The position numbers were made by a program, and so were the translations under genes. Shown here piece after piece: positions 2,286 through 25,662 of a stretch of 30,870 nt of DNA (position 1 is its first letter; each line of letters opens with the position of its first letter). Source of the stretch: an uncultured Thermoleophilia bacterium (GTDB taxonomy: Bacteria > Actinomycetota > Thermoleophilia > UBA2241); the NCBI GenBank assembly GCA_903912585.1, contig CAIWHY010000083.1, forward strand, positions 1 to 30,870, given 5' to 3'. Under the pieces are notes generated by a model. The model worked only from the letters and a program-made list of their open reading frames with translations. It was not told the DNA's origin and did no database searches.

Positions 2286-2312
2286 GTGTGTCTCCCTAAG
2301 CGGCCGGCAGGA

Positions 2313-2348
2313 GCCGGGCGCCCCGACCGCGAGGGCGGGGCGCCCGGC
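2313..2348 (-). terminator. Strong stem-loop between the substrate-binding protein gene and the first permease (attenuator or mRNA stabiliser)
   Basis: Perfect 13-bp arms GCCGGGCGCCCCG (2313-2325) and CGGGGCGCCCGGC (2336-2348), 10-nt loop; no U-tract. Confidence 0.6.
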
Positions 2349-2378
2349 CGCGAGCGGCCGAACAGTCGAGCGGTTGGA

Positions 2379-4028: not shown

Positions 4029-4160
4029 GTCTGCTCCCCCTTTGCCTTGGATTCGCTCATCCCCGCAGTATCAGCTGGACAAGAGCGCCTTGGAGAACCA
4101 GCGACCGCCACTCCTCGATCAGGAATCGGAAGAGCGTGCCCGATGGCTTTCTCCCAGAGA

Positions 4161-4192
4161 ATCATATGCGGGTTCGCCTCCTGTGATGACAA
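4161..4192 (-). promoter_or_regulatory. Candidate promoter of the ABC transporter operon
   Basis: TTGTCA (4192-4187), 20-bp spacer, TATGAT (4166-4161). The spacer is long, so it may be activator-dependent. Confidence 0.5.
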
Positions 4193-4208
4193 GTCCGAGG
4201 TCGAGACT

Positions 4209-4222
4209 TCCCAAATACCAGA
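4209..4222. promoter_or_regulatory. Candidate IclR operator A
   Basis: TCCCA-AATA-CCAGA, 16 bp upstream of TTGTCA on the minus strand. Confidence 0.6.
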
Positions 4223-4258
4223 CACGTTTTTTCCCGTGGAGGCGGGCCCCGTCGGGGT

Positions 4259-4273
4259 CGTGTCGTTGACACG
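4259..4273. promoter_or_regulatory. Inverted repeat overlapping the -35 box of the dehydrogenase operon promoter
   Basis: CGTGTC-GTT-GACACG, followed directly by the palindrome GTCATGAC (4273-4280). Confidence 0.45.
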
Positions 4274-4294
4274 TCATGACCGCGAACCTAGCAT
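4266..4294 (+). promoter_or_regulatory. Housekeeping-sigma promoter of the dehydrogenase-larA-M20 operon
   Basis: TTGACA (4266-4271), 17 bp, TAGCAT (4289-4294). Confidence 0.7.
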
Positions 4295-4474
4295 CCTCGT
4301 GAGTGCATCGGCGTGCCCAGCGGAGTCCGCGCCGCTCGCGCTACCGTTTGTCGACGCTGTCGCTTCCGGTCGTCCGCTCAGCCTGAGCGGCAGGTAGGGC
4401 GCCACGTGGCGGCCCTTCGAGGTGGTGCGCGCGAGTCTCACGCGTGACCACCATCCACGAGACTGAGGAGCCAG

Positions 4475-5500
4475 ATGCGAATCGTTGTTTTGGACGACAT
4501 CGGGATGGGCGCAGAGGATCTTCACCGCCTGGAGGCTCACGGCCATGTACGCGTCTTTTCCGCCGCGCCGTCCGACGACGCCGAGGTCATCGAGCGCATA
4601 CGAGGCGCAGAGGTCGTGATCTCCGGTTGGACGAAGATCGGCAGCGACGTCCTGCAGGCCGTGCCCGAGCTCCGGCTCGTCTCCCTCTGGGCTACGGGCC
4701 TCGACAACATCGATCTGGCGGCGGCAAGCGCGGCGAACGTGGCCGTCTGCAACGTGCCCTCGTATGCGACGGATTCAGTGGCCGAGCTCGCCCTCGGCTT
4801 GATGCTTGCGGTGATCCGCAAGATCCCTGCGGCCGACCGGCATCTGCGGCGCACGCTGCGAAGCGACTGGCGACCGTTCCAGGGAAGCCAGCTTCGCGGC
4901 AAGACCCTCGGCATCGTCGGCACCGGGGTGATCGGCCAGCGGGTGGCCCAGCTGGGCCACTGCCTCGGCATGCCCCTCCTTGGCCACGATCTGCGGGTGT
5001 CGGAGGCACTGGTGAACGATGTGGGCATGCGCTACACGTCGCTGCCGGATCTCTTCGCGAACAGCGACGTGGTAACGCTTCACGCGCCCCTCACAGCGGA
5101 CACCGAGCACCTCGTGGGCGCGTCCCTCCTGGGCCTTCTCTCTGACACGGCGGTGATCATCAACACCTCTCGCGCGGGCCTCATTCAGCAGGATGACCTG
5201 TACGCGGCGCTAGCGGACAAGGCCATCGCGGGCGCCGGACTCGACGTCATCGACCTTGAGTGCGAGAGCGGTCGGCGGCTCCTGGAGCTCGAGAACGTCG
5301 TCGTCACTCCCCATATCGGCTTCTACACGCATGAGGCTCTGGGGCAGCTGACGGCGATCTGCGTGGAGAATGTCGTCCGCTTTCTGGATGGGGACCCGAT
5401 CAACGTCGCCGGCCCTTGGCCCGCTTCACGCGCCATGACGGCGCCCGCGGGCGGGGAGACCGGCGACACGAGCGACGAGGTGAGCAGCGATGGCGCCTGA
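4475..5500 (+). CDS. D-isomer-specific 2-hydroxyacid dehydrogenase (NAD-dependent)
   Basis: WATGLDNID, Rossmann GIVGTGVIG, VTLHAP, INTSRAG (Arg), LDV, VTPHIGFYT (His); GAGGAG RBS. Confidence 0.93.
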   Translation: MRIVVLDDIGMGAEDLHRLEAHGHVRVFSAAPSDDAEVIERIRGAEVVISGWTKIGSDVLQAVPELRLVSLWATGLDNIDLAAASAANVAVCNVPSYATDSVAELALGLMLAVIRKIPAADRHLRRTLRSDWRPFQGSQLRGKTLGIVGTGVIGQRVAQLGHCLGMPLLGHDLRVSEALVNDVGMRYTSLPDLFANSDVVTLHAPLTADTEHLVGASLLGLLSDTAVIINTSRAGLIQQDDLYAALADKAIAGAGLDVIDLECESGRRLLELENVVVTPHIGFYTHEALGQLTAICVENVVRFLDGDPINVAGPWPASRAMTAPAGGETGDTSDEVSSDGA

Positions 5501-6785
5501 GCGACAGAGAATCTCGATACCGTACGGCGCCGGCTCGCTGGAGGCGGATATCCCTCAGGGCGGCACCCTGTTCATGGGCGAGTTCGAGGAGCTCTCGGCG
5601 CTCGATGACTTCAAGTCGACTCTTCTCGCGAGACTCGACCAGCCGACCGGGACCGATCCCCTTCGCGAACTCGCCAGCGGCCGCGCCAACACGCTCATCC
5701 TCGTCGACGACAACACGCGGCACACGCCGGTCGACCGCATCCTGCCCGTACTTCTCGACTACCTCAACGAAAGCGGCCTCGCGGACGAGGACATCCAGAT
5801 CCTCACGGCATCCGGAACACATCGCGTCATGACCGACGACGAGGTGCTGGCCAAGGTGGGTGCGGAGGCGCATCGCCGGGTCACGATCACTCAGCACGAC
5901 TGTCGCGACCTGGAGTCGATCGTCGAGCAGGACTCCGTCAGCAGCGGCGCCAGCATCATCCCCGTGCAGATCAACAGGAAAGTCCTCGACGCCGACCTCA
6001 TCATCGGGCTGGGAAGCATCTTCCCCCACAGCGATGCCGGCTTCACCGGCGGGGCCAAGATCGTGCAGCCGGGTGTCTGCGGGACGACCACTACGGCTGC
6101 CACTCACATCGCGGCGGCGCTTCTGGATGAGATCCCTCTGGGAGACGCCGACTCCCTGTGCCGGCTCGGCATGGAGGAGGTCGCGCGCAAGGTGGGCCTC
6201 GACTTCATCGTCAATGTCATCCAGGACCATCGCGGCCATCTCCTGGACATCGTCGCCGGCGACGTCGTCGCCGCCCATCGCCTCGGCGCCGAGGTCTCGC
6301 GCAGGGCGCACGGCGTCGTCGTCCCCGAGCCGGCGGACGTGGTCATCGTGAGCTCGTATCCCGGCGACATCGACTGGTGGCAGGCGGAGAAGTGCCTCGT
6401 CGCCGCGTACTTCGCCGTCAAACCCGGCGGCTTCATCGTGTTCGCCGGTCCCTGCTACGAGGGCCTCGTACACAACCATCCACGGCTGCGCGACTGGTTG
6501 CCGCTGTCGTTCGAGGAGGCTCGGACGAAGGCGGCCGGCATCGACCCGGCCGACACCGAGGCGGATCTCATCGCCGCCGACGTGGCCATCGTCAACGCCA
6601 AGGTGCGGGAGAAGGCCACCATCCTCATGGTGACCGACGGCCTGTCGGACGCCGACGTCGCCCTGCTCGGCTACCGGCGCATGCCGGACCTCCAGTCGGC
6701 GGTGGATCGTGCGCTGGAGCGTGCCTCGGGTGGCAGCGTGGGCGTCCTGCCGTACGGTGGGATCTGCCTGCCGATCGTCGGGTGA
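5490..6785 (+). CDS. larA: Nickel-pincer-dependent LarA-family hydroxyacid racemase/epimerase
   Basis: DDNTRHTP (Asp/Arg), ASGTHR (His), FPHSDAGFTGGAK (His and cofactor-binding Lys), TH, DIDWWQAEK (Gln/Lys), following the recalled LarA catalytic pattern. Confidence 0.9.
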   Translation: MAPERQRISIPYGAGSLEADIPQGGTLFMGEFEELSALDDFKSTLLARLDQPTGTDPLRELASGRANTLILVDDNTRHTPVDRILPVLLDYLNESGLADEDIQILTASGTHRVMTDDEVLAKVGAEAHRRVTITQHDCRDLESIVEQDSVSSGASIIPVQINRKVLDADLIIGLGSIFPHSDAGFTGGAKIVQPGVCGTTTTAATHIAAALLDEIPLGDADSLCRLGMEEVARKVGLDFIVNVIQDHRGHLLDIVAGDVVAAHRLGAEVSRRAHGVVVPEPADVVIVSSYPGDIDWWQAEKCLVAAYFAVKPGGFIVFAGPCYEGLVHNHPRLRDWLPLSFEEARTKAAGIDPADTEADLIAADVAIVNAKVREKATILMVTDGLSDADVALLGYRRMPDLQSAVDRALERASGGSVGVLPYGGICLPIVG

Positions 6786-8137: not shown

Positions 8138-8158
8138 CCCTGCGCGCGGCAACGCCGC

Positions 8159-9001
8159 TCAGGGGCGGGACCAGAGGTCCGTGGCGCTCAAGCCCAGCTC
8201 CTGTTCGACTTCGAGACGGTAGGCGGCGACGGCGCCCCGGGTGAAGGGTCCGGGGGGATCATCGAATTCGCGGTCCTCGACGACCGCGACCGCCTGGACT
8301 TCGCGCGCCGCTCCGGCCAGAAACGCCTCCGCGGCCGCGAGCGCGTCCTCGGTGCGGCACGTACGCTCGGAGACGTCCAGATGCCTCATGACGATGCGAC
8401 GCGTGATGGAATCCAGGATGCCGGCGTCGAGAGGCGGCGTGCACACCTCACCCTGCGGGGTGACCCAGAAGAAGGCGGCCTGCTGCACCTCCATGACGCG
8501 GCCGTCCGGCGTCGCGAGCAGCGCCTCGTCAAAGCCGCGCTCCTGAGCCGCACGCTTCGCCACCATGTTGCCGGCGTAGGAGAGGCTCTTCGCGCCGGCC
8601 AGCACCAGCCTCGGCGTGTCGATGACGAACGCCAGCCGGGCCGGCGGCCAGTCGAGGTACGGCTCGAGGAACACGATGCGCCTGCCGCCGCGCGTCAGCA
8701 CGATGCGCAAGTCGCTGAAGACGGGGCCGGCCCAGTCGAGGAGCGCGACGATCTCGCTCTCGAGCAACTCGCGCGGATACGGCAGGCGAAGCGTCGCGCA
8801 GGTGCGCGCCAGGCGATCGAGGTGCTCGACGAGCGTGAACGGCCGGCCGGCATAGCAACGCAGATACTCGAACGCGCCGTCTCCACGCAGCATGCCGTCG
8901 TCGTACAGAGGGACGGTCGCCTCGCGGGCGTCGCACAGCACGCCGTCGACGGAGGCCGCCATCTCAGGCGCGCCACTTGAGCCGCGCGCGAGCCCCGTCA
9001 C
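8159..9001 (-). CDS. Fold-type IV PLP enzyme (D-amino-acid transaminase / BCAT / ADC-lyase family)
   Basis: GDGAFEYLRCY, HLDRL, AKSLSY (PLP Lys), GFDEALL, LDSITRRIV, AREVQAV. GTG overlaps the upstream stop; alternative ATG at 8963. Confidence 0.88.
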   Translation of the reverse strand: MTGLARGSSGAPEMAASVDGVLCDAREATVPLYDDGMLRGDGAFEYLRCYAGRPFTLVEHLDRLARTCATLRLPYPRELLESEIVALLDWAGPVFSDLRIVLTRGGRRIVFLEPYLDWPPARLAFVIDTPRLVLAGAKSLSYAGNMVAKRAAQERGFDEALLATPDGRVMEVQQAAFFWVTPQGEVCTPPLDAGILDSITRRIVMRHLDVSERTCRTEDALAAAEAFLAGAAREVQAVAVVEDREFDDPPGPFTRGAVAAYRLEVEQELGLSATDLWSRP

Positions 9002-11037
9002 ATCCTCTCCACTCGCACCTCGACCGACTTCATCAGCGGGAACCCGCTGATCGGGTCGAAACGGTCGTCATGCGTGATGAGGTTCACGTTGGCGTCCCTC
9101 CATCCGTGCGTGATCTGGAGGCTGCCGGGGAGGATCTCGTTGGGAGCCATCACCTTCACGGGCAGCTCGAGTGAGCCGATGCGCGACGTCACGCGGACCG
9201 TGTCGCCGTCGGCCACCCCGAGAGCTTCGGAGTCGTCCGGGTGCATCTCCACCTCGGGGCCGGGAATGGCCGTCAGGAAGCGGGGGATGTTGCGAAACCG
9301 GCTGTGCAGGTAGAGGAGCTTGCGCGCCCCGGTGATGAGCACGAACGGGTACGCGGCGTCGGGTTCGCGGCGGTAGGCGGGACTCTGGTACACGGGGAGC
9401 TCGTCGTATCCCAGGTCCTTCAGGTACTGCGAGGCGAACTCGACCTTGCCGGACGGTGTGTCGAAGCCCGTATCCTTCCAGCGCCCCGGCAGAGACGGAC
9501 TGTACTCCACGCCCTCGGGATGAGCCTCCAGCTCCTCGAGGGTGAGACCCGTCGGCTCGAGCAGCCAACGGTTGAGAGCCGTCTCGTCCTCCCAGGGGAA
9601 GTAGTCGCCGATCCCCAGGCGGGCAGCGAGGTCATGCCAGAACTCGTACTCGCCCTGCACGCCCGGCCACGAGACGACCTTGCGGGTAACGCTCACGATC
9701 TGATGCTTGGCGTGAGCGTGCAGCTCGGTACGCTCGAGGAATGACGCCGCCGGCAGGACGTAGTCGGCCACCGCAGCCGTCTCGCTCATGAAGAGATCGC
9801 GCACCACCAGCAGGTCGAGGGACTTCAGGGCCTCGAGGACCCTCGTGGAGTTAGGATTCGTGGACGCCGGGTTCGCTCCCGTGACGATGAGCGCCCGCAG
9901 GGGATACGGGTCGTCCTGCAAGATGGCCTCGATGGCCGTCATGGTGTGACACTCCCGGCGCAGATCGTACAGCACGGGGAAGCGCCCGGCGCCGAGAGGG
10001 CCAAGGTGCTTCAGCGGCACGTCCTCGTACAGGGTGAGGTCGCGTAGCGGCAGCTCTGCCTTGAAGAAGGTGCCTCCCGCCCGGTCCAGGGCGCCGAGCA
10101 ACCCGTCAAGCATCGCGATGGCGCGGATGTTGTTGACGCCGTTCTCGTGGTGCTCGAGGCCGTTGCCGACGTAGGCGGCGACCCGCGGCGCGGCGCTCTG
10201 CATGGCGCGGGCGATCGCCCGGACGGCAGCCGCCGGCACCCCCGTCTCCGCCTGCACTGCCTCTGCAGTGAACGCCTTCGCATAGTCGACCACCTTGGCG
10301 AAGCCGACCGTATGATGCTCAACGAAGTCCGCGTCGCAGGCGCCCGCCGTGACGAGCTGGTGGATCAACCCCCAGGCCAGGGCGCCGTCGGTCCCCGGTC
10401 GCACCGCGGCGTGGATGTCGGCGCGGCGGGCGATCGCCGAGAGCCGCGGGTCCACCACCACGAGAGTCGCGCCCTTGCGGCGCGCGGCGGTGATGTACTG
10501 GGTCATGTTGGGATGCGCGTAGGGCGGGTTCGCTCCCCAGAGGACGATGCAGCCGGCGTTCTCGAGGTCGGGGACGGGCCAGGCACCGGCGACCAGCTTG
10601 AAGCCGAAGTAGCGCGCCGCGTAGCACATCGAGTCGTTGGAGAGGTAGTTGGGGCTCCCGACGGCGTGAGCGAAGCGACGCGCGATGTTCTCTTGCTGGC
10701 CAAAGCCGATGGCCTCGCCCTTCCACACACCGATGCTGCGCGCGCCGCGCTCCTCCCTGATCGCGGCGAGACGCGCGGCGATCTCGTCCAGCGCCTGCTC
10801 GAGCGGGATCTGCTGCCAGCCTTCGTCGGTCCGCTTGAGCGGCGTGAGGATGCGGTCGGCGTGATAGACCATGTCCACGGCCGCACGGGCCTTCACGCAC
10901 AACCGGCCCCGGTTCCAGAGATGCGCCTTGTTCCCGAGGATGTCGACGATGCGGCCGTCTTCAAGATGGACGTCGATGCCGCAGCGATCGTCGCACATCC
11001 GGCAGAGCGTCTGCTGGATCTCCGTCTCGGGCGGCAT
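8998..11037 (-). CDS. Cytoplasmic Mo/W-bisPGD oxidoreductase catalytic subunit, acetylene-hydratase-like clade
   Basis: N-terminal CRMCDDRC...LCVK [4Fe-4S] motif, GSPNYLSNDSMC (Cys ligand position), WGANP, VVVDPR, PGTDGALA, ADYVLPAASFLER, TPSGKVEF, EVEMHPDD; no Tat signal. Confidence 0.9.
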   Translation of the reverse strand: MPPETEIQQTLCRMCDDRCGIDVHLEDGRIVDILGNKAHLWNRGRLCVKARAAVDMVYHADRILTPLKRTDEGWQQIPLEQALDEIAARLAAIREERGARSIGVWKGEAIGFGQQENIARRFAHAVGSPNYLSNDSMCYAARYFGFKLVAGAWPVPDLENAGCIVLWGANPPYAHPNMTQYITAARRKGATLVVVDPRLSAIARRADIHAAVRPGTDGALAWGLIHQLVTAGACDADFVEHHTVGFAKVVDYAKAFTAEAVQAETGVPAAAVRAIARAMQSAAPRVAAYVGNGLEHHENGVNNIRAIAMLDGLLGALDRAGGTFFKAELPLRDLTLYEDVPLKHLGPLGAGRFPVLYDLRRECHTMTAIEAILQDDPYPLRALIVTGANPASTNPNSTRVLEALKSLDLLVVRDLFMSETAAVADYVLPAASFLERTELHAHAKHQIVSVTRKVVSWPGVQGEYEFWHDLAARLGIGDYFPWEDETALNRWLLEPTGLTLEELEAHPEGVEYSPSLPGRWKDTGFDTPSGKVEFASQYLKDLGYDELPVYQSPAYRREPDAAYPFVLITGARKLLYLHSRFRNIPRFLTAIPGPEVEMHPDDSEALGVADGDTVRVTSRIGSLELPVKVMAPNEILPGSLQITHGWRDANVNLITHDDRFDPISGFPLMKSVEVRVERM

Positions 11038-11523
11038 CTACTTCTCTCCCTTGTCCAGATGAAGGAGGCGCCTGAGGCTGGCGTCGAGCACCTCACGACG
11101 AAGGTCGACCGCCTCGTCGGCCTCGATGTAGCGCAAGGCTCCTGAGATGCAGGAGCGCACGCACATCGGGTCGCCTCCGCACAGGTCGCACTTGCCGCTC
11201 ACGCCTTGCGTCCTGTCGAAGTGGACGTTTCCGAATGGGCAGGCGAGCAGGCACATCTTGCACCCGGCGCAGCGAGCCGCGTCGATCTGGACCGCCCCCG
11301 TCTCCGGATCGCGACTGATGGCGGCGGCCGGGCACACCTCAAGGCACCAGGCGTCGTCGCAGTGCATGCAGGTCAAGGGGACGCACGCACGCTCCTCCGC
11401 GTAGAAGTTCACGCGGATGTGAGAGGCCCGCCTGTCGAAGTCGCCGCTCTGACGGAACGCACAGGCGTACTCGCAGTTGCGGCACGCGACACACGAGTCG
11501 GGGTCTACGGCAACTATGCGCAT
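11038..11523 (-). CDS. 4x[4Fe-4S] electron-transfer subunit (DmsB/HydN/CooF/AorA-like)
   Basis: CVACRNCEYAC, CMHCDDAWCLEVCP, CAGCKMCLLACP, KCDLC...CVRSC; its TAG abuts the Mo subunit ATG. Confidence 0.93.
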   Translation of the reverse strand: MRIVAVDPDSCVACRNCEYACAFRQSGDFDRRASHIRVNFYAEERACVPLTCMHCDDAWCLEVCPAAAISRDPETGAVQIDAARCAGCKMCLLACPFGNVHFDRTQGVSGKCDLCGGDPMCVRSCISGALRYIEADEAVDLRREVLDASLRRLLHLDKGEK

Positions 11524-12779
11524 GGCGTCTTCTCCTTGATCGCTCCCCTGCCCACGAGCCGCTGACCGAGGTCTCGTCCCTCAAGAAAGGTCGGCAGGTC
11601 AGGCAAGAGCCGTCTCTGACGCACAAATGGCCGGAGGCGGCCCAAGAGTGCCGCCCCTTCGGGGTCTCCCAACGAGATCGCGCCCACAGGCACTCCCGCC
11701 CGGGACACGAGCTTCAAATAGCGGATGCCCGCAAGGTCGCGCGACTCGAACACGTCGTCACCGTCGTCCTCGACGAACCGACCCAGCGAGGCCACGGTGA
11801 GCCCGAACATCTCGGTGACGTTCATGCTCAGGCTGCCGGCATAGGCCACGCCGGCCTCAGCGAGGTTGGCTCCGGCCACCCGGCCTTGTTCGACGGCCGT
11901 AGGCCACAACGCGTGGATCTCCCGCGGCCCGCCGGCGCTGGTGGGGCCTCGCGTCACGTCTCCGGCGGCAAAGACGCCGTCCACGCTGGTCTCCATGGTG
12001 TCGGCCACCGGGATGCCCGGCTTGCCCGGCTCAAGACACTCCGGCAGCAGCCCATCGTTGGGCCGCGCCCCAGTGGCCACGATGACGGCGTCGACCGCGA
12101 ACGCGCCTGTGCCGTCGGTCGAGACGCGCACCTTGCCGTCGTGGTCTGTCTCCACGCCGTCGGTGCGCGTGCCCGTGCGCACGTCCACGCCGTACGCGAG
12201 GAGCTGCTCGTGGAGGATCCGCGCCGCCGCCGCGTCCAGCACGCGAGGCAGGATCTGATCAAGCAGCTCCACGACGATCACTTGGAGTCCGCGCTGCCTG
12301 GCGGCCCAGGCTGCCTGCAAGGCGACGAAGCCCGAGCCGAGCACCATCACCCGCGCGCCCTCCCGGAACAGCGAATCGAGCCGAGTGGCGTCGTCCAAGG
12401 TCCACAGCGTGTGGATACCCGGACCGTCAAGGCCCGGGATCGGCGGCCGCGCCGGACTCGATCCGGTGGCGAGCAGAAGCCGGTCGAAGCCGAGGCGGCG
12501 TCCGTCCGCGAGTTCGAGCTCGCACGTCGCGGGATCGACCCGCTCGACGCGAGCGCCAAACTCAGTCGCCACGCGCAAGCGCGCGTAGTCGCTCATCTGC
12601 CGGATGAACAGGCCCTCGTACGAGAGTCGTCTGCGCAGGTAGTACGGCAGCAGCACGCGGGAGTAGGCCGGGACCGGCTCAGCGGAGACGAGCGTGACCG
12701 ACGCCGTCTGGTCACGCTCGCGGAAGCCCTCGAGCGCACTCAAAGCGGCTGCGCTGTTGCCGACGATGGTCACCTGCAC
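11514..12779 (-). CDS. FAD/NAD(P)-dependent oxidoreductase (NirB/Nox/AorC-like)
   Basis: IVGNSAAALSA, AYSRVLLPYYL, RLLLATGSSP, LGSGFVALQAA, VIVATGARPN, VFAAGDV, GSLSMNVTEMFG. Confidence 0.9.
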   Translation of the reverse strand: MQVTIVGNSAAALSALEGFRERDQTASVTLVSAEPVPAYSRVLLPYYLRRRLSYEGLFIRQMSDYARLRVATEFGARVERVDPATCELELADGRRLGFDRLLLATGSSPARPPIPGLDGPGIHTLWTLDDATRLDSLFREGARVMVLGSGFVALQAAWAARQRGLQVIVVELLDQILPRVLDAAAARILHEQLLAYGVDVRTGTRTDGVETDHDGKVRVSTDGTGAFAVDAVIVATGARPNDGLLPECLEPGKPGIPVADTMETSVDGVFAAGDVTRGPTSAGGPREIHALWPTAVEQGRVAGANLAEAGVAYAGSLSMNVTEMFGLTVASLGRFVEDDGDDVFESRDLAGIRYLKLVSRAGVPVGAISLGDPEGAALLGRLRPFVRQRRLLPDLPTFLEGRDLGQRLVGRGAIKEKTPCA

Positions 12780-12800
12780 AGGCCGGCCCTGGTCCCGTCG

Positions 12801-14252
12801 TCAGTCGGTCGCCGCTGCGAACGCCGCGACGAGCTCGTCCGCGGCCGCCGCGATCCGAGGCGGCAAGGGCGGCGCCTCGTGCTCGGCCAGCAGCCGCATC
12901 GCCTTGACGCGAGCCTTGGCCGCGAGGTCAAGGCCGCCGTCGGCCAGCCAGCTCTCGCGCCCCTGGCGGTTCAGGATGCCGGGCCGCCACTGGACCTCGC
13001 GCATGTGGCGGCGCGTGTGCTTGCTGCCCATGAAGTGGCCGCCCGGACCGGTCTGGGCGATCGTCTCGACGGCCAGGCTGTCGCGGTCCACGGGAACGCC
13101 TCCGAGAAGGCGCCTGTTCATGGCGATGGACTCGTCCACGATCACGATCTGCTCGAGAGAACACGTGAGCCCGAAGTCGAGATACCCGACGTCGTGCGCG
13201 AGATTGGAGCCGGCCTGCATGGCGAGGAACGTGATCTGCGTCGCCTCCATGCCGGCCTGCGCGTCCGGCAGATGGCTGTCGCTCGTGCCGGCGTTGCCCC
13301 AGTTGGGGATGTCCAGCCACTTGGCCATCTCGACGGCGCACATGTAGCCGGTGAGGTAGCCGAGGTCGTTGTAACTCGATTGCGCGGTCGCGATGTCGAG
13401 GACGGCGGAGCCGATACCGAACAGGAACGGCGCGCCGGGGCTGCGCAGCTGATGTACCACCATGCCGAACAGGCACTCGGCCACTCCCTGGGCCGTATGC
13501 CCGGCGACGGTGATCGGCGCCGTTGCTCCGGCGAGCGGCGCCGGCGAGTAGATCGACGGTACGCCGGCATCGGCGCACAGGAGGAGCTTGTCGATGCTGT
13601 CGCCGGGATGGACCAAGGGGCTGGTCGGCTCCATGTAGACGACGAAGTACGGCTTCTGACGAAGCTGCTCGGCCCCGCCGCGCAACTCGCGGGCGATGTC
13701 GATCATCACCGCGAGGTCGCGGGCGTTCTCGGCCGTCATGACCAGCGGCTTGGTGCTGTTCTCCATCATCGCCTGGAAACTCAGCAGGTACGCTTGATGG
13801 GGATCCCGGTCTGTCGGGTGGGCCGAGCTCATGACGAAGTCCAGATTCGGCAGCGCGTCGCAGAGGCGAGCGGCGCGACAGACGTCCTCGAGGACGCTCG
13901 GCCGGTGCTCGCCGGTGTCGAGATCGTACGTGGACATCAGGTCCGACCCGGTGCCGAAGTAGCTGTTGTACCCCCCGAGCTCCATGGCCGGCTCGCCCAG
14001 GCGGTCGTACACGTCGACCACCTTTGGCACGGAGAGGCGTGCCTGCTCGACGAGGTGCCGGGGCATCAGCACGCGCTCGTCGGCGGTCAGCGTGCAGCCG
14101 GCGTCCAGAAGCATGGCTCTCGCCTCGTCGTGCTGCACCAGCATCCCGACCTTGCCGAGGATCTCGAGCACGGCCACGTAGATGTCGCGCTTGGCCGCCT
14201 CACTGAGAAACTGGAGGCGGCCGACCTGCGACGCGTTGCGAAGTTCCTTCAT
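12801..14252 (-). CDS. MttB-family (trimethylamine methyltransferase superfamily) protein, non-pyrrolysine, copy A
   Basis: SYFGTGS, NSTKP, EPTSPL, APLAGATAPITVAG, PGAPFLFG, NAGTSDSHLPDAQAGME, HDVGYLD, GPGGHF. ATG 14252 has a GGGAG RBS; no in-frame TAG. Confidence 0.92.
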   Translation of the reverse strand: MKELRNASQVGRLQFLSEAAKRDIYVAVLEILGKVGMLVQHDEARAMLLDAGCTLTADERVLMPRHLVEQARLSVPKVVDVYDRLGEPAMELGGYNSYFGTGSDLMSTYDLDTGEHRPSVLEDVCRAARLCDALPNLDFVMSSAHPTDRDPHQAYLLSFQAMMENSTKPLVMTAENARDLAVMIDIARELRGGAEQLRQKPYFVVYMEPTSPLVHPGDSIDKLLLCADAGVPSIYSPAPLAGATAPITVAGHTAQGVAECLFGMVVHQLRSPGAPFLFGIGSAVLDIATAQSSYNDLGYLTGYMCAVEMAKWLDIPNWGNAGTSDSHLPDAQAGMEATQITFLAMQAGSNLAHDVGYLDFGLTCSLEQIVIVDESIAMNRRLLGGVPVDRDSLAVETIAQTGPGGHFMGSKHTRRHMREVQWRPGILNRQGRESWLADGGLDLAAKARVKAMRLLAEHEAPPLPPRIAAAADELVAAFAAATD

Positions 14253-14306
14253 GTCACGCACTCCCGTCTTGTCCATCACGGGTGTGGGTCTCGCGCGCCT
14301 GCCCGG

Positions 14307-15413
14307 TCACGAGGAAGCCTGCGGCTCGAGCGAGCGCAGGCGATCGAGAAAGAAGTCCATCTCCTCGCGCGTGCCTGTGCTGACCCGCGCCCACCCGGGA
14401 CAGCCGAGCCCGTTGCCGTCGCGCACGATGACGCCCAGAGCCATGAGGGCTTCGCAGACCTTGTCCTGGGGCACGCTCAGGCCCTCGATGGAGACGAGGA
14501 CGAAGTTCGTCTGGCTGGGGACCACGGCGCGACCCATGCTCGCGAGGGCGCTCTCGAGGTACTCGCGCATCTCGATGATCAGGCGCCGGCGCTCGAGTAT
14601 CTGGTCCTGGTGCTTGAGCGCCTCAAGTGCGGCGACCTGCGCCAGCCGGTTGACGTTGAACGGCTGGCGCACCTTGTCGAGAGCATCCCTCACGACCTCC
14701 GGACAGAGGCCGTAGGCGACGCGCAGACCGGCCAGCCCGTAGGCCTTCGAGAACGTCCGGAACAGGCAGACGTTGGGCCTCTCGGCCTGGAGTCTCTGTG
14801 TATCCTCGCGATCGTCCGCGGAGACGAACTCGTTGTAGGCCTCGTCGATCACCACGAGAACGTCCGCCGGGATCTTGTCGACGAAGGCCGCGACCTCGGC
14901 CGCGGGCAGGTAGTTGCCGGTCGGGTTGTTGGGGTTGCACACGATGACCAGCTTCGTGCGCGGAGTGACCGCGGCGGCCATGGCCTCGAGGTCGTGGCCG
15001 AAGTCCGGGAGCAGAGGGATCATCACGGCTTTGGCGTCGCGTCGCAGGCAGATGTCCTCGTACAGCATGAACGACGGGTCTGCAAAGACGACTTCGTCGC
15101 CGTGGTCGAGCAGGGCGTCGCCGAGCAGCTCCAGCAGGTCGTCCATGCCATTGCCGACAGCGATCTCCTCGAGGCGCCGTCCGAAGAGCTCGGCCAGCGC
15201 CTGGCGAAGATCCAGGCAGTCGCCGTCCGGATACCGGTTCACCTCGTCGAACGCCGCCATCACGGCCGCCTTGACCTCGGCAAGAGGCGGCAGCGGGAAC
15301 TCGTTGGACGCCAGCTTGACCACTTCGGTCAGCCCATACTGACGCATGACGTTCTCGATCGGGACGCCGGGCGTGTACGGCACGATGCCCTCGATAGCCG
15401 CAAGGAACCTCAT
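14307..15413 (-). CDS. hisC: Histidinol-phosphate/aromatic aminotransferase (HisC-like, fold type I PLP)
   Basis: PYTPG, KLASNE, RYPD, GNGMDD, CNPNNPTG, DEAY, RTFSKAYGLAGLRV (PLP Lys). Its role in this cluster may be catabolic. Confidence 0.85.
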   Translation of the reverse strand: MRFLAAIEGIVPYTPGVPIENVMRQYGLTEVVKLASNEFPLPPLAEVKAAVMAAFDEVNRYPDGDCLDLRQALAELFGRRLEEIAVGNGMDDLLELLGDALLDHGDEVVFADPSFMLYEDICLRRDAKAVMIPLLPDFGHDLEAMAAAVTPRTKLVIVCNPNNPTGNYLPAAEVAAFVDKIPADVLVVIDEAYNEFVSADDREDTQRLQAERPNVCLFRTFSKAYGLAGLRVAYGLCPEVVRDALDKVRQPFNVNRLAQVAALEALKHQDQILERRRLIIEMREYLESALASMGRAVVPSQTNFVLVSIEGLSVPQDKVCEALMALGVIVRDGNGLGCPGWARVSTGTREEMDFFLDRLRSLEPQASS

Positions 15414-15850
15414 CGCGCCTCCCGCTCTCCCGGACCGTTCCGCCTATGGACGACGATCTTGCCCGCAACGGCGTCGACGGCGATGCGGTCGCCATCCTCG
15501 ATGTCGTCGTAGAAGGCGGGATCGACCTCGTCCACGAGCGGCACTTCCATCGCGATGATGGTCGACACGAGCACCGGCTCCGGCGTCTGGATGACGACGG
15601 CCGCCGGAGCCGTCTTCTTCATGATCAGCCGATACAGGCCGTCGGCCTGCACGACGGAGCTGCCCTTGCCCGTGGGCATGACCAAGACCTTGCCGGCGAC
15701 GCTGCGGCCGTCCAGGCAGTGCCCACTCTCGATCACGCAGCCCGTGTCCGGCTCGCACAGCGCAAAACAGAGGGCGTCTGTCGACAGAAGCGCCTCGCCC
15801 TCCCCGATGCCCTCGGAGATGGGCCGGCATGCGTACTCGTGCTCGCTCAT
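15410..15850 (-). CDS. Aconitase X small (swiveling, DUF126) subunit
   Basis: GEGEALLS, GHCLDGRSVAGKVLVMPTGKGSS, APAAVV, IEDGDRIAVDAVAG; ATGA overlaps at both ends. Confidence 0.88.
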   Translation of the reverse strand: MSEHEYACRPISEGIGEGEALLSTDALCFALCEPDTGCVIESGHCLDGRSVAGKVLVMPTGKGSSVVQADGLYRLIMKKTAPAAVVIQTPEPVLVSTIIAMEVPLVDEVDPAFYDDIEDGDRIAVDAVAGKIVVHRRNGPGEREAR

Positions 15851-17064
15851 TTGACCACCTCTCCAGCAAGGGCTGCTTGGACGGCTTGCGCCAAGGGCCG
15901 CACGGCGTAGCGCTGCCCGTAGACTTGACAGTAGAAGGCGCATTTCTGGGACTCGGTGACGCCAGGCCGGCCGTAGTACGCGTCCCAGCAGCCCGGGATG
16001 TCCATGCAGGTATCGGCGACGACGTGTCCGCCTGCCCGCTGGATGACGCCGAGGAACCCCATGCGCTCGGCGAGCTCGAGCGTGAGAGAGCTGACGAGGA
16101 TCCAGGTGTCGACGGCCAACTGCTTGCCATCCACGAGCGCAGCGACCTCCCCCACCTGGCGGATCGTGAGATGGGGACAGCCGAGCATGGCGTACTCGAT
16201 GGGCCCCGACTCGCCGCTGAACTGCTCGCGCACGCGGTCGAGGTCGGCGTCGGTGATCGTCACGCGATGCTTGACGGCGTTGCCGCCGAAGGCCGCCTCG
16301 ACCGTCGGCGCCTCCGGCGTGATCCCGGCGATGTGGTACATGGCGACGGCGCCGGAGGTGGCGAGCTCAGCGCCGAACTGAACAAAGCCTTCGGGAGTGG
16401 CACGTTTCTCGATGCCCGTGAACACCGGGACCTCAGCTCCCTTGTACTTCTGCGGATACGCATAGCCCAGAAGACTCCAGTCGAAGTCGTCCTCGATCTT
16501 GGCCTCGACTTCGACCAGCACTTCGCCCTTGCGGTTCTCGTCGAGCAGCAAGCCGTACTCGGGCACGCGCCCGGTCACGGCAGCGCAGAGCGCGCTGATC
16601 GACGACTCGCGGTTGCTGCGCGCCCCGAGCACGGAGTTGACGTAGGGAGTGGCGGAGGACTCCGAGAAGGCCACGACCTCGCCGAAGGCGGGCACGTTCT
16701 TCTCGAGCTCGGGCGTGCAGCTCAGCGTCAGCGTCGCACCGATGCGCCGGTAGGCGTCGTTGCTGGCCTGCACCCTGTCCCGACCCTCGTCCGTCAACGG
16801 GCCCAGATGTTCTTCAACGTACCCGGTGTCCATGCTTGGGTTCGTCGTCGGGGAGACGACGCAGCGCGCCCCGAGGTCGAGCAGCTTGGTGACGAAATAG
16901 AGATCGCCCTCTTGGGCGCTGGCCGCGACGTGCGTGCGGGTGATGGGCACCATACGCTTGGCGTAGAAGGCCTTGCCGGTACCTACCTGGACCTTCATCG
17001 CGAGCGCGACGCCTTCGCCATGCTTGCCCGCCAGCATGTCGAGTTCGAGGCTTGTCAACTCCAT
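15847..17064 (-). CDS. Aconitase X large (catalytic, DUF521) subunit
   Basis: MELTSLELDMLAG, TTNP, SCTP, FSESSA, GARSNRE, AAVTGRVPEYGLL, GAVAMYHIAGITPEA, LGCPH, DTC (three Fe-S Cys); GAAGGGAG RBS before ATG 17064. Confidence 0.92.
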   Translation of the reverse strand: MELTSLELDMLAGKHGEGVALAMKVQVGTGKAFYAKRMVPITRTHVAASAQEGDLYFVTKLLDLGARCVVSPTTNPSMDTGYVEEHLGPLTDEGRDRVQASNDAYRRIGATLTLSCTPELEKNVPAFGEVVAFSESSATPYVNSVLGARSNRESSISALCAAVTGRVPEYGLLLDENRKGEVLVEVEAKIEDDFDWSLLGYAYPQKYKGAEVPVFTGIEKRATPEGFVQFGAELATSGAVAMYHIAGITPEAPTVEAAFGGNAVKHRVTITDADLDRVREQFSGESGPIEYAMLGCPHLTIRQVGEVAALVDGKQLAVDTWILVSSLTLELAERMGFLGVIQRAGGHVVADTCMDIPGCWDAYYGRPGVTESQKCAFYCQVYGQRYAVRPLAQAVQAALAGEVVK

Positions 17065-17170
17065 CAAGGCTCCCTTCTCACACCCGGTGACCGGGTCGAC
17101 GGCTGGAGTGGTTCTCGGCGAACGCACGATACTCGGCGGCGCCTGGGGCGCCACGGAAGCAACCTCGCCA

Positions 17171-17198
17171 ATCATGAACGGTCCCTGCAACGGGTCAA
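17171..17198 (-). promoter_or_regulatory. Candidate internal promoter for the acnX-to-aminotransferase IV sub-operon
   Basis: TTGACC (17198-17193), 16 bp, CATGAT (17176-17171). Confidence 0.5.
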
Positions 17199-17215
17199 GC
17201 TGCCGGGGCCCGGGG

Positions 17216-17229
17216 TCTCGTATGCTGGA
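17216..17229. promoter_or_regulatory. Candidate IclR operator B
   Basis: Minus strand TCCAG-CATA-CGAGA(C), 17 bp upstream of TTGACC. Confidence 0.6.
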
Positions 17230-17474
17230 TGGGAATGACCTGCACCGGGCGGGACGGGATCGGCTTCAGGCCGCCGGGAGCGGAATCCGGCCGATCGGAG
17301 AGTGACGTCCAGACGAGCTCGCCCGGAGCGCCGGATGCGGCGCGCCCACTGGACGCGCTGGTCGAGGAGGCGCGCAGGGAGCGCAGCGCCTGAGCGCGTG
17401 CCACGCGCAGACGAGCGCGACCAAGGCTCGCGGCGACGCCGCACGACCCTTCGTCCCAGGCTGCGCCCGTCGGC

Positions 17475-18878: not shown

Positions 18879-18880
18879 CC

Positions 18881-20335
18881 TCAGCCGCCCGGTGTGAACC
18901 CGGCCACCAGTGCATCGATGCGCACCGTCAGCTCCGCGGGTAGCGGCGCCGGCGCGTGGGTCTCGAGCAGCTGGAGCGCTTTGCGGCGGGCTTTCTCGGT
19001 GAGGTCGAGCGCGCCCTCTTCCCGCCAGCGCGCGTGGCCCTGGCGGTTGATGATCGTCGGACGCCACTGGGCTGTACGCACGTGCCTGGCAGTGTGGCGG
19101 GCCGCGAGGAAGTCGCCGCCGGGGCCGACCTGGCGGATGGTGTCCACGGCCAGGGTCTCGGCGTTCACTTCCACGCCGGCGAAGAGACGGCGATTGAGGG
19201 AGAGGTACTCGTCGACCATGACGATCAGCTCGAGCGACGCCGTGAGGCCGAAGTCGAGGTAGCCGACGTCGTGGTTGAGGTTGGACCCGGTAGCGAGACT
19301 CAGGAAGGTGAGCTCGGCCGCCTCCATGCCCGCCTGGGCGTCGATCACCTGGGCGTCGGTCGTGCCGGCGTATCCCCAGTTGGGCAGGTCGAGCCAGCGC
19401 GCCATCTCGACGGCGCAGACGTAGCCCATGAGGTACTCCGGCGCGTTGTACGCGGACTGCATCGTGCCCATGTCCAGCACCGCCGGGCCGATGCCGAAGA
19501 CGAACGGCGCGCCGGGCCGGCGCAGCTGGTGGATGACGAGCCCGAGCAGCGACTCGGCCGTACCTTGGGCGATGTGCCCGGCCACCGTGATCGGCGCCGT
19601 GCCGCCGGCGAGCGGGGAGGTGGAGTAGACGCAAGGGACGCCGTGGTCGGCGCACAGGAGCAGCTTGTCGACGGCCTCCACGGGGTGACGCAGCGGGCTG
19701 GTCGGCTCGCCGTAGAGGACGAAGTACGGCTTGGCGGCGAGCTCGTCCGCGCCGCCGCGGACCGCGGCGGCGATCTCGATCATCACGGCGAGGTCGCCGG
19801 CGTTCTCGGCGACGACGACCAGTGGCTTCGTCGTGTTGGCGACCATCGCGCGAAAGCTCTCGAGCAAGGCGCGGTGCGGGTCGCCTTCGCCGGGGTGCGC
19901 GTAGGCCATGACGAAGTCGATGTTCGGCAGGGCGTCGCAGAGGCGCGCCGCCTGGACGCCGTCGGCGAGGACGGTCGGCCGGTGCTCGCCGGTCTCGAGG
20001 TCATAGACGGCGGTCACGGCCGAGCCGTTGCCGAAGTAGCTGTTGTAGCCGCCTAGGCTCATCGCCGGCTTGCCGGTGCGGTCGAAGACCTCGATCACGT
20101 GCGGTGCGCTCTCTCGCACCTGCTGCACGATGGCGCGCGGCACCTTGACGAGGTCGGGCTCGGTGACCTCGCAGCCGGCGGCGCGCAGCAACTCGAGAGC
20201 CTCGGGGTGATGGACGCGCATGCCGATGGTGGAGACGATCTCGAGAGCCGCCTCGTAGATGGCGAGCTTGTCGTCGTCGGTGAGATAGGCCAGGCGGCCG
20301 GCGCGAGGCCGATCGCTTGGATCCGTGATAGGCAC
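18881..20335 (-). CDS. MttB-family methyltransferase, non-pyrrolysine, copy C (paralog of copy A)
   Basis: SYFGNGS, NTTKP, EPTSPL, PLAGGTAPITVAG, PGAPFVFG, YAGTTDAQVIDAQAGME, HDVGYLD, GPGGDF; GGGAGG RBS before GTG. Confidence 0.92.
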   Translation of the reverse strand: MPITDPSDRPRAGRLAYLTDDDKLAIYEAALEIVSTIGMRVHHPEALELLRAAGCEVTEPDLVKVPRAIVQQVRESAPHVIEVFDRTGKPAMSLGGYNSYFGNGSAVTAVYDLETGEHRPTVLADGVQAARLCDALPNIDFVMAYAHPGEGDPHRALLESFRAMVANTTKPLVVVAENAGDLAVMIEIAAAVRGGADELAAKPYFVLYGEPTSPLRHPVEAVDKLLLCADHGVPCVYSTSPLAGGTAPITVAGHIAQGTAESLLGLVIHQLRRPGAPFVFGIGPAVLDMGTMQSAYNAPEYLMGYVCAVEMARWLDLPNWGYAGTTDAQVIDAQAGMEAAELTFLSLATGSNLNHDVGYLDFGLTASLELIVMVDEYLSLNRRLFAGVEVNAETLAVDTIRQVGPGGDFLAARHTARHVRTAQWRPTIINRQGHARWREEGALDLTEKARRKALQLLETHAPAPLPAELTVRIDALVAGFTPGG

Positions 20336-20376
20336 GGCTGTCCTCCCGTAGCAGTGGTATGCAGCATGTGCTCTCC

Positions 20377-20405
20377 ACCCTGACGCGCCGTCGCGCGCAC
20401 TTCAA
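20377..20405 (-). promoter_or_regulatory. Candidate promoter of the mttB C-B operon
   Basis: TTGAAG (20405-20400), 17 bp, CAGGGT (20382-20377). Confidence 0.45.
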
Positions 20406-20413
20406 GTGCGCGC
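20393..20413. promoter_or_regulatory. Perfect 10-1-10 inverted repeat overlapping the candidate -35 box
   Basis: GCGCGCACTT-C-AAGTGCGCGC. Confidence 0.5.
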
Positions 20414-20421
20414 CCGGCGCG

Positions 20422-20435
20422 TCCAGAGTACTGAA
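20422..20435. promoter_or_regulatory. Candidate IclR operator C
   Basis: (G)TCCAG-AGTA-CTGAA(C), a near-perfect palindrome 16 bp upstream of TTGAAG on the minus strand. Confidence 0.65.
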
Positions 20436-20445
20436 CTCGTTTTCG

Positions 20446-20474
20446 TTGTGGTGCGCGCAGGCGGCCGCTATGCT
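20446..20474 (+). promoter_or_regulatory. Candidate promoter of the iclR gene
   Basis: TTGTGG (20446-20451), 17 bp, TATGCT (20469-20474). An operator half-site (TATG-CTGGA, within 20464-20477) overlaps the -10. Confidence 0.5.
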
Positions 20475-20497
20475 GGATTTGGATGGAGGTATGTGCA

Positions 20498-21367
20498 GTG
20501 CCGGGCGACCCGAAACAGGACGAGCAGGGAACGACTTGGGGCGCCGCCCACGTGCTCGACGTCCTCGAGTTCCTCGGGCGCCGCACGAGTCCGGCGCCGG
20601 CCAGCATCGTCGCATCCTCCTGCGACATCCCCCGCTCCAGTACCTACGCGCTGCTCAACCTGCTGAAAGCGCGACGGTTCGTCACGTACCGCGCGGAAGA
20701 GCGCGCCTGGTCGCTCGGCTCGGCGGCATTCGAGCTGAGCGCAGACGCCCCGCTCTTCGCTCACGGACTGGCAGTGCTGCGCGCGTTCGCGACGTCCTCT
20801 CGCGGCCTCACCGTCTCGCAGATCGCGAGTGGCGCCGGCATGTCCCGGGTCACCGTGACGCGCATCCTTCCGCATCTCGTCGAGAGCGACCTGCTGCGGG
20901 CCGAGCCCGACGGGACCTACTCGTTGGGCTTGGAGCTCGTGAGCCTGGCTTCGCGGGTGGGCTGGGTAGACCGGCTGCGGATCGCCGCCCGCCCGCACCT
21001 CGTGCGCCTGCGCGACGCGACCAGCGAGACCGCGAACCTGATCATCCTCGACGGCGATCACGCGATCTACGTCGATCAGGTCGAGAGCCCATACGCGCTG
21101 CGACACAGCGGCTGGGTGGGTCGCCGCGTGCCGCTGGCGGGGACGGCGACCGGCACGGCGTTCGGGGATCGCACGACATCACATGTCGCCAAAGACGCGG
21201 TCGAGACAGGAGTCACAGCCATCGTCTGCGCCATCGACCTGCCCGGCGACGAGGCTGCCGTCGGGGTCACGGCGCCGAACTGGAGGATCGAGGAATTCGG
21301 CGTGATGCGCGCGCAGCGTATGGTCGAGGCGGTCGCCCGCGAGATCGCGCAGCGTCTGCACGGGTAG
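20498..21367 (+). CDS. IclR-family transcriptional regulator with two tandem N-terminal winged-HTH domains
   Basis: HTH1 VLDVLEFL...IPRSSTYALLNLLKARRFV...WSLG; HTH2 GLAVLRAF...LTVSQIA...MSRVTVTRILPHLVESDLL...YSLG; effector domain ARPHLVRLRDATSETANL...VGRRVPL...GVTAI. GTG 20498 is 7 nt after GGAGGT. Confidence 0.9.
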   Translation: MPGDPKQDEQGTTWGAAHVLDVLEFLGRRTSPAPASIVASSCDIPRSSTYALLNLLKARRFVTYRAEERAWSLGSAAFELSADAPLFAHGLAVLRAFATSSRGLTVSQIASGAGMSRVTVTRILPHLVESDLLRAEPDGTYSLGLELVSLASRVGWVDRLRIAARPHLVRLRDATSETANLIILDGDHAIYVDQVESPYALRHSGWVGRRVPLAGTATGTAFGDRTTSHVAKDAVETGVTAIVCAIDLPGDEAAVGVTAPNWRIEEFGVMRAQRMVEAVAREIAQRLHG

Positions 21368-21388
21368 CGAGAGGGGGGCGCATTTGCG

Positions 21389-21402
21389 TCCGTAATGCGA
21401 GA
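21389..21402. promoter_or_regulatory. Candidate IclR operator E
   Basis: (G)TCCGT-AATG-CGAGA(C), 16 bp upstream of TTGCAT. Confidence 0.6.
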
Positions 21403-21418
21403 CTCCCGCCTGGCGCCC

Positions 21419-21446
21419 TTGCATAGACGGGGACCACGCCTAGTGT
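21419..21446 (+). promoter_or_regulatory. Candidate promoter of the ammonia-lyase gene
   Basis: TTGCAT (21419-21424), 16 bp, TAGTGT (21441-21446). Confidence 0.5.
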
Positions 21447-25573: not shown

Positions 25574-25595
25574 TCGGAGTCCGTTCGGAGTCCGT
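25574..25595. repeat. Two exact tandem copies of TCGGAGTCCGT
   Basis: 25574-25584 and 25585-25595. Confidence 0.7.
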
Positions 25596-25634
25596 CTCTG
25601 GCGCCGCCGTGCGTGCATCTGCCGGGGCCGCCTT

Positions 25635-25662
25635 CCCATCGAGCTGCTGAGCGCCGCCTCGC
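25635..25662 (+). repeat. Left copy of an imperfect direct repeat flanking higBA
   Basis: 24/28 nt identical to 26387-26414; exact 14-bp core GCTGAGCGCCGCCT. Confidence 0.65.

Follow-up and report, generated by a model that had tools for sequence, protein, structure and literature searches.

Conserved, putative HutR-like IclR operators precede MttB methyltransferase, transporter and hut-type promoters in an uncultured Thermoleophilia genus

The stretch of DNA analyzed here (the window) is the whole of contig CAIWHY010000083.1 (30,870 nt, hereafter C83), which belongs to a 3.13-Mb, 568-contig metagenome-assembled genome (MAG) of 69% GC from an uncultured Thermoleophilia bacterium. It carries the gene of an IclR-family regulator (R1a) between a pair of mttB methyltransferase genes and a gene for a histidine ammonia-lyase (HAL)-like protein, together with an acnX operon and an operon for an ATP-binding cassette (ABC) transporter whose binding-protein gene is here called SBP (Table 1). 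The original prediction had noticed four copies of one palindrome, here called A, B, C, and E, at a fixed distance from the promoters of the transporter, acnX, mttB1, and lyase genes, and had assigned all four to the local IclR protein. Judged by their conservation in relatives, these elements are real palindromes held at an invariant upstream position and very probably operators of HutR-like IclR-family regulators.

The acnX operon encodes the AcnX large and small subunits, a HisC-like aminotransferase, a third MttB protein (MttB#3), Pyr_redox_2, 4Fe-4S, and Mo-oxidoreductase proteins, and a class IV aminotransferase, and its gene order is identical in genomes G035 and G001. The true start of the AcnX large subunit is the ATG at 17064, a start corrected by ortholog alignment, and the same kind of alignment indicates that R1a probably begins at the GTG at 20498, which lies behind a GGAGG. 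MttB1 and MttB2 score under the NCBIfam cut-off specific for trimethylamine (TMA), and the gene pair adjoins R1a in most orthologous loci. At the left end of the window, the SBP-ABC operon continues into an ATPase gene and then into the gene of a second regulator, R2, on contig C113, an order that is alike in G035 and G001. DNA near-identical to this locus is present in lake-water and freshwater metagenomes.

Table 1. Genes, operators, and promoter elements of the window.
Feature	Position	Strand	Description and basis
ABC permease gene	373-1587	-	Pfam; operon 373..4028
ABC permease gene	1317-2285	-	Pfam; operon 373..4028
SBP_bac_5 binding-protein gene (SBP)	2379-4028	-	Pfam; operon 373..4028
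Element A'	4193-4207		15-bp imperfect palindrome; fills the entire 15-bp gap between A and its -35
Operator A	4208-4223	-	GTCTGGTATTTGGGAA; 16-mer, 15 bp upstream of the SBP/ABC-transporter -35 TTGTCA (4192..4187)
Distal A-W-W-C patch of site A	4226..4229	-	AAAC, within an AAAAAC run
Promoter of the dehydrogenase/LarA-like/M20 operon	4266-4294	+	TTGACA-17-TAGCAT; 10/12 consensus matches
2-Hydroxyacid dehydrogenase, LarA-like racemase, and M20 peptidase genes	4475-8137	+	Pfam/NCBIfam
acnX operon	8159..17064	-	Pfam, NCBIfam
Operator B	17215-17230	-	ATCCAGCATACGAGAC; 16 bp upstream of TTGACC (17198..17193); -10 CATGAT 17176..17171
mttB2	17475-18878	-	Pfam MTTB; pyrrolysine-free MttB-family methyltransferase
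mttB1	18881-20335	-	Pfam MTTB; pyrrolysine-free MttB-family methyltransferase
Operator C	20421-20436	-	GTTCAGTACTCTGGAC; 15 bp upstream of mttB1 -35 TTGAAG (20405..20400); -10 CAGGGT 20382..20377
iclR -10	20469-20474	+	TATGCT
Half-site overlapping the iclR -10	20473-20478	+	CTGGAT
IclR-family regulator gene (R1a)	20483-21367	+	Pfam
Operator E	21388-21403	+	GTCCGTAATGCGAGAC; 15 bp upstream of TTGCAT (21419-21424); -10 TAGTGT 21441-21446
HAL-like aromatic amino-acid lyase gene	21533-23056	+	Pfam/NCBIfam; a phosphoenolpyruvate carboxykinase gene then follows
HigB-like toxin and HTH antitoxin pair	25574-26413		right of the island
tRNA gene	26547-26621	-	after the toxin-antitoxin pair

We fetched the orthologous loci of the IclR, AcnX, binding-protein, and hutU genes from genomes of the same genus and aligned their upstream regions, which gave a comparative set of 63 ortholog sites in five classes. 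In these promoter alignments, each of the window sites stood out as a conserved island amid diverging intergenic DNA. Site A was kept in 11 SBP orthologs with the consensus GTCyCGTATnyGGGAm, and one copy was a perfect palindrome. Site B read GTCCAGCATACGAGAC in four loci, and the block CATTCCC-(G/A)TCCAGCATACGAGAC-N15/16-TTGACC was kept in four genomes with variable flanks; in the remaining genomes, acnX lies behind a dehydrogenase gene and lacks a separate promoter. Site C, GTTCAGAACTCTGGAC, had a match in 16 of the 19 orthologous regions that were aligned, and GAAAACGA lies on its distal side. The E site was found as GTCCGTrATsCsGGAC in 11 orthologs (11/17 regions); in most orthologs of this class, a TAnnnT -10 is combined with a poor -35, TGGGCA, at the equivalent place. 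When the upstream regions of the orthologous clusters were examined for the motif, all four sites proved to be conserved together with their spacing. The locations originally given for the sites were borne out as well, the gaps of 15, 16, 15, and 15 bp counted from the 16-mers being the same as the 16, 17, 16, and 16 bp that had been counted from 14-bp cores.

The sites conform to a 16-bp palindrome, GTCC-N8-GGAC, most often centered on AT and flanked by a promoter-distal A-W-W-C patch. When the sites of this genome and the 63 ortholog sites were weighted by class, T2, G14, and A15 were invariant (100%), and G1 and C16 were present in 95% and 85%, respectively. The distance from the 16-mer to the TTG was 15 bp in 51 of the 63 ortholog sites and 16 bp in four; the exceptions were seven E-class orthologs, in which TGGGCA occupies this position, and one A-class site without TTG. 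Across the five classes, the distal patch had A at -6 in 93%, A or T at -5 and -4 in 98 to 100%, and C at -3 in 73%, with an information content of 1.65 to 2.3 bits at -6 to -4. An approximately 16-bp palindrome with GT..AC ends that adjoins a regulator gene and its neighboring operons and is conserved across genomes is what characterizes the GT-12-AC/HutR class of operators, and the sites described here have these features.

The promoters downstream of these sites are mostly weak. Those of C, E, and A fell under the threshold of a sigma-70 consensus scan, a result that fits activator-dependent promoters, and the promoter of B and the divergent dehydrogenase promoter passed it. The SBP promoter combines its TTGTCA with a candidate -10, TATGAT, at 4166..4161, across an unusually long spacer of 20 bp that is conserved in all orthologs, in which CTTGyCA and GCATATGAT occur at like spacing. 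The dehydrogenase-operon promoter, a strong match to consensus, is conserved in divergently arranged orthologs; relative to its inferred transcription start site (TSS), site A is centered about 85 bp upstream. The inferred TSSs of the SBP, acnX, mttB1, iclR, and lyase promoters are near 4154, 17164, 20370, 20481, and 21453, respectively. For the binding-protein gene, this gives a 5' leader of about 130 nt (4029-4160), in which blocks are conserved among orthologs, one of them just before the ribosome-binding site. An Rfam scan of the long 5' regions for leaders and riboswitches returned tRNA only, and the binding-protein leader matched no family.

Two further elements had been reported next to the operators. 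The half-site overlapping the iclR -10 was confirmed: GCCGCTATGCTGGATT at this -10 is nearly invariant among orthologs, and the center of the half-site is 42 bp from the center of C, which itself lies only 9 bp upstream of the iclR -35 TTGTGG (20446-20451). A complete site covering this -10 ("D") was rejected, as its best register (20463-20478) reached only 4.1 bits with the operator position weight matrix (PWM; described below), and we kept the element as a half-site. The second imperfect copy beside A, here A', is present where it had been reported, but it is not conserved as a palindrome: its left half varies in orthologs, and the PWM score is negative in every register. A' is probably the spacer between A and its -35 and not an operator, to judge from these alignments. 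Another match, GACCATCATCCTGGAC at 21535-21550, lies in the first codons of the lyase gene and scored 13.7 bits with the operator PWM, and the equivalent in G035 scored 15.4 bits; this match may arise by coincidence from the coding sequence (N-terminal TIILDG), or it may serve as an auxiliary site downstream.

The same operator is found outside the window, so that the original estimate of about 17 kb for the regulon was too small; six operators are now counted, including those of hutU and of the mttB4-corrinoid genes. One is located on contig C302 (280-295) upstream of the urocanate hydratase gene hutU, with the promoter TTGAAG-17-CAGGGT, the same as that of mttB1. The other (M4; C113:2443-2458) lies between R2 and a fourth mttB gene (mttB4), which is followed by the gene of a B12-binding corrinoid protein. 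The end of C113 (4959-5031) and the start of C83 (within 1-77) share 73 identical nucleotides inside the ABC ATPase gene; therefore, the two contigs abut, and R2 (C113:2603-3439) is located about 1.5 to 2.4 kb beyond the left end of the window, where it follows the site-A transporter genes on the same strand. C302 probably follows C113, as suggested by a 12-nt overlap and by synteny with G035. In G035, a single contig holds, in order, the HAL gene, E, R1a, C with mttB1, B with the acnX operon, A with SBP-ABC, R2, M4, mttB4, the corrinoid gene, and hutU. The hutU promoters of about 20 genomes of the genus have the form GAAATCGC-GTCCAGnnnnCTGGAC-15-TTGAAG, and in relatives mttB4, the corrinoid gene, and hutU stand in line on one strand behind one operator. 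As in the HutR regulon, the operator precedes hut genes, with E before the HAL-like gene and the hutU site (U) before hutU. Some hutU promoters (loci L141 in G016, L147 in G024, and L150 in G020) also have a second, A-type palindrome, such as TTCCCGTATTCGGGAA, shortly before the hutU-type site; the tandem sites of G016 and G024 are separated by 9 bp, and their centers are 25 bp apart, which is not a whole number of helical turns.

R1a belongs to the IclR family, with Pfam scores of 68 bits for HTH_IclR (cut-off 22) and 61.9 bits for IclR_C (cut-off 24). It is an atypical member: two tandem winged helix-turn-helix (wHTH) domains, at about residues 21-78 and 92-148, are followed by a short effector domain (AlphaFold2 model, pLDDT 81.5), and the solved IclR proteins in the PDB (PcaR and TtgV) align to residues 92-227, that is, from the second wHTH onward. 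Its atypical features are the additional N-terminal wHTH and the shortening of the C-terminal domain. Of the two wHTH domains, the first has the better conserved recognition helix. R2 is 46% identical to R1a and likewise consists of tandem wHTH domains and a short alpha/beta domain. In NCBIfam, R1a had no equivalog match, the best being BhcR with 90 bits against a cut-off of 350. A tree of IclR homologs placed clade R1 apart from clade R2. Proteins of the R1a type (73-88% identical) are always encoded next to mttB1 and the HAL-like gene, those termed R1b are 62-68% identical, and R2 orthologs (43-48% identical) are always encoded 2 to 4 kb from hutU. A third IclR paralog (49-53% identical) was observed in G006 (C27, 140-153 kb; L180), G020, and G069, where it adjoins genes for a 47%-identical HutU-like protein, a HutI-like protein, a distant MttB, and a HisC-like protein, with PWM matches such as GTCTCACATTTCGGAC nearby; these loci suggest a family of paralogous modules that use one operator grammar.

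Which regulator serves which site was addressed by co-occurrence in 54 genomes of the genus, which are related and partly incomplete MAGs. The acnX module was found in 14 genomes, all of which have R2 (14/14) and only two of which have R1a (2/14). In three of them (G001, G021, and G027), R2 was the only such regulator detected, yet each has A- and/or B-type sites: G001 keeps A, B, and M4, and the SBP orthologs of G021 and G027 are preceded by A-type sites. R1a-only genomes, on the other hand, keep C, E, and a stand-alone hutU site; this hutU site was present in 20 of the 21 R1a genomes for which the upstream locus of hutU was retrieved, and hutU has no site in two genomes that lack any such IclR (G073, 97% complete, and G008). 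C and E flank R1a in alignable orthologous loci, and M4 is directly downstream of R2. The phyletic patterns make it most likely that R1a serves C, E, and the hutU site and that R2 serves A, B, and the mttB4 site. Of the original assignment of all four window promoters to the local IclR, the part concerning C and E therefore probably stands, and A and B would pass to R2 by their phyletic pattern. Two adjacent paralogous regulons with nearly one operator grammar are probably the most parsimonious reading of the comparative data.

A single regulator, with R1a activating all four window promoters and repressing itself and R2 being irrelevant to A and B, would explain why the operator grammar is alike at all sites. 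In R1a-only genomes, the E-type sites must be targets of R1a, and they closely resemble A-type sites, a PWM trained on E ranking A 54th genome-wide; moreover, in G016, where only R1a was found, an A-type site lies upstream of the hutU site. We nevertheless regard this model as unlikely, given the distribution of the acnX/SBP module described above, the three genomes in which this module is accompanied by R2 only, and the position of R2 on the same strand behind the A-driven transporter genes. As the operators are so similar, cross-talk between R1a and R2 is possible. We also tried to sort the operators by sequence into a C/U subclass without the central AT and an A/E/M4 subclass with it, and abandoned the attempt because neither the subclasses nor the flank types follow the regulators.

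The explanation that we favor, by a modest preference, is that genuine HutR-like IclR operators direct class-I-type activation of six promoters by two paralogous regulators. The grammar would consist of the A-W-W-C patch, 2 bp, the 16-bp palindrome, 15 bp (rarely 16), and TTGnnn, so that the dyad lies near -58.5 of mostly weak promoters, a value calculated for a spacer of 17 bp with the -10 at -12 to -7. An effector-responsive regulator dimer or tetramer bound at this upstream position would recruit or stabilize RNA polymerase, as a class-I-type activator does, at the promoters of hutU, the HAL-like lyase, mttB1-mttB2, mttB4-corrinoid, and the SBP-ABC and acnX operons. The constant placement of the operators upstream of weak promoters agrees with activation. 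The iclR promoter shares site C and has the half-site over its -10, an arrangement that could give autoregulation; the 9-bp distance of C from the iclR -35 and the near invariance of the half-site suggest as much. Binding, the sign of regulation, the effector, and the assignment to paralogs are inferred, and activation with autorepression is plausible from the position of the sites.

The sites could also act in repression or anti-activation, with tetramers bridging the upstream site and proximal half-sites or blocking an UP-like A/T patch until an effector releases them. The IclR family does include repressors and dual regulators (PMC8222616), the 42 bp between the iclR -10 half-site and the center of C correspond to four helical turns, and the A/T patch beside every site could be an UP element occluded by the protein. 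We consider this mechanism improbable, as there is no full second operator over the -35, -10, or TSS of the four catabolic promoters, these promoters are weak and deviate from consensus, and activators that must contact RNA polymerase typically bind at a strictly fixed distance from the -35.

Several observations weigh against activation by two paralogous regulators at a defined set of operators. The promoter of A requires a spacer of 20 bp, the position near -58.5 depends on inferred -35 and -10 boxes, and IclR proteins are able to repress from upstream sites too. The public runs containing the locus are DNA metagenomes only (lake, freshwater), with no RNA run among them. The phyletic counts are not independent because the genomes are related and partly incomplete, and no nucleotide position cleanly separates R1a-linked from R2-linked sites, so that the division between the regulators rests on phyletic co-occurrence. 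Lastly, counts of the motif by itself lie near or below chance. The earlier consensus, with the three mismatches or fewer needed to include A, had 119 matches in the window against 157 ± 13 in shuffled sequences, so that it is not enriched, and a PWM trained solely on orthologous sites from other genomes found 10 matches of at least 15.5 bits in the 3.13-Mb genome compared with 3 to 9 in Markov-3 simulations.

With a PWM count so near the simulated one, the palindrome alone is unspecific genome-wide and is useful only together with position and conservation. We dropped counts of IUPAC patterns as evidence: the original consensus was below chance, and a refined pattern gave 40 matches with 33 expected. 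Among the 119 consensus matches, eight have a TTG at +15/16, and four of those eight are intergenic, namely, the four claimed sites; since the window statistics alone are weak, it is only the TTG at +15/16 in intergenic DNA that singles them out. The PWM matches behaved in the same way. Four of the 10 fall in this 31-kb contig (site A scored 14.8-15.9 bits and site C 17.0-17.9 bits), all six intergenic matches have a TTG at exactly 15 to 16 bp, and none of the four coding matches does. PWMs from which one class had been left out recovered each site of that class in this genome, with a chance expectation of 0.0003 to 0.013 per 300-bp promoter, and cross-class PWMs recognized sites at nonhomologous promoters. 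A composite pattern of patch, GT-12-AC, 15 to 16 bp, and TTG, which was defined post hoc, had five matches in the genome, all of them sites described here, and none in the reversed genome. The idea that GC-rich DNA simply yields GTC...GAC palindromes and that the four sites have no common function draws on the unenriched consensus and the near-chance PWM count, but it is effectively refuted by the comparative data, namely, conservation at dozens of orthologous promoters, the invariant 15-bp spacing, the restriction to intergenic DNA, and the co-occurrence with the regulators.

The original prediction had also tied the MttB methyltransferases to histidine-like chemistry, and this link gained support: the same operator precedes hutU, and in relatives the mttB4-corrinoid-hutU genes follow one operator in line. 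Since in relatives hutU is downstream of mttB4 and the corrinoid gene on the same strand, a HisC-like gene is part of the acnX operon, and the HAL-like lyase is encoded beside R1a, the MttB paralogs are connected to histidine-type chemistry. The HAL-like lyase, whose gene always travels with R1a and mttB1, has Ala-Cys-Gly where enzymes that form 4-methylideneimidazole-5-one (MIO) have Ala-Ser-Gly, and it scores just under both NCBIfam hutH cut-offs. Its closest solved structures are histidine ammonia-lyases (287 bits, with ergothionase at 179 bits). Histidine-betaine/ergothioneine TMA-lyases lack the Ala-Ser-Gly triad entirely (bioRxiv 10.1101/2025.08.13.670108); as the HAL-like protein keeps Ala-Cys-Gly, a possible MIO triad, and resembles HAL far more than it does ergothionase, we rejected its identification as such a TMA-lyase. 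Within the body of literature searched, no paper mentions MttB together with hercynine.

One tentative interpretation is that the island of about 35 kb would encode a so far undescribed pathway for the breakdown of an N-methylated derivative of histidine, in which two or more tandem-wHTH IclR activators sense different intermediates through one operator grammar. Candidate substrates in the freshwater and soil Thermoleophilia that host the island would be hercynine, ergothioneine, and methylhistidines. Four pyrrolysine-free MttB paralogs and the corrinoid protein would strip or capture the methyl groups, and the Ala-Cys-Gly HAL-like lyase and HutU would pass the imidazole skeleton to the hut pathway. 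To the right, the HigB-like/HTH pair and the tRNA gene could mark the boundary of the island.

Taken together, these results define a testable six-promoter regulon with one operator grammar for an uncultured Thermoleophilia genus represented by lake-water and soil MAGs. They provide the first regulatory link found between pyrrolysine-free MttB and corrinoid proteins and hut genes, a link that narrows the substrates of the MttB paralogs to histidine-related quaternary or methylated amines, and the shared operator offers a handle for discovering the effector and the pathway.

HutR of Corynebacterium resistens is among the known systems closest to the one described here. HutR of strain DSM 45100 is reportedly an IclR-type regulator of hutHUI, hutR, and hutG, and its sites are said to lie upstream of mapped promoters. 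The published HutR motif is GTCTGWWATWCCAGAC (PMC8222616 Table 1), a 16-bp palindrome with the same frame and the same ends as the motif of the Thermoleophilia sites. The likeness given in the original prediction, 12 of 14 positions for site A, is confirmed in the identical frame: of the 16 positions, 13 agree in A and E, 10 in B, and nine in C. Both systems have an IclR-family regulator clustered with hutH-like and hutU genes, a likeness of motif and gene context. They differ in the half-site, which is GTCT in the HutR motif and mostly GTCC in the Thermoleophilia sites. These sites also have an additional distal A-W-W-C patch, their regulators are tandem-wHTH proteins with a short effector domain, and the grammar is common to two or more paralogs. 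Further members of this regulon are MttB methyltransferases, a corrinoid protein, an operon for AcnX, HisC-like, and Mo-enzyme proteins, and an ABC transporter.

E. coli MhpR is an IclR-type activator with a site centered near -58, and the operators described here resemble those of MhpR, PcaU, and PobR in their fixed position upstream of the -35 and in a conserved element outside the palindrome. In Acinetobacter, the sites of PcaU and PobR consist of a palindrome and an external repeat (PMC8222616). In the Thermoleophilia sites, this outer element is a short A/T patch in which no repeat of the half-site is recognizable, the effectors and pathways differ, and the system is known from sequence alone. 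In the survey by Suvorova and Gelfand (2021; PMC8222616), HutR is placed in the GTNCG-N5-6-CGNAC group, and an "NGT-12-ACN" subtype is also defined. This subtype is common in Actinobacteria (PMC8222616), and the sites here share with it the palindrome, the GT...AC ends 12 bp apart, and the location beside a regulator gene and catabolic operons. The survey stresses tandem sites 18 to 22 bp apart, whereas here the sites are mostly single, with tandems only at some hutU promoters and 25 bp apart. HutR-type operators are thus already known, and the locus described here is another instance of them, one whose regulon includes MttB genes and which had earlier been over-unified under one regulator.

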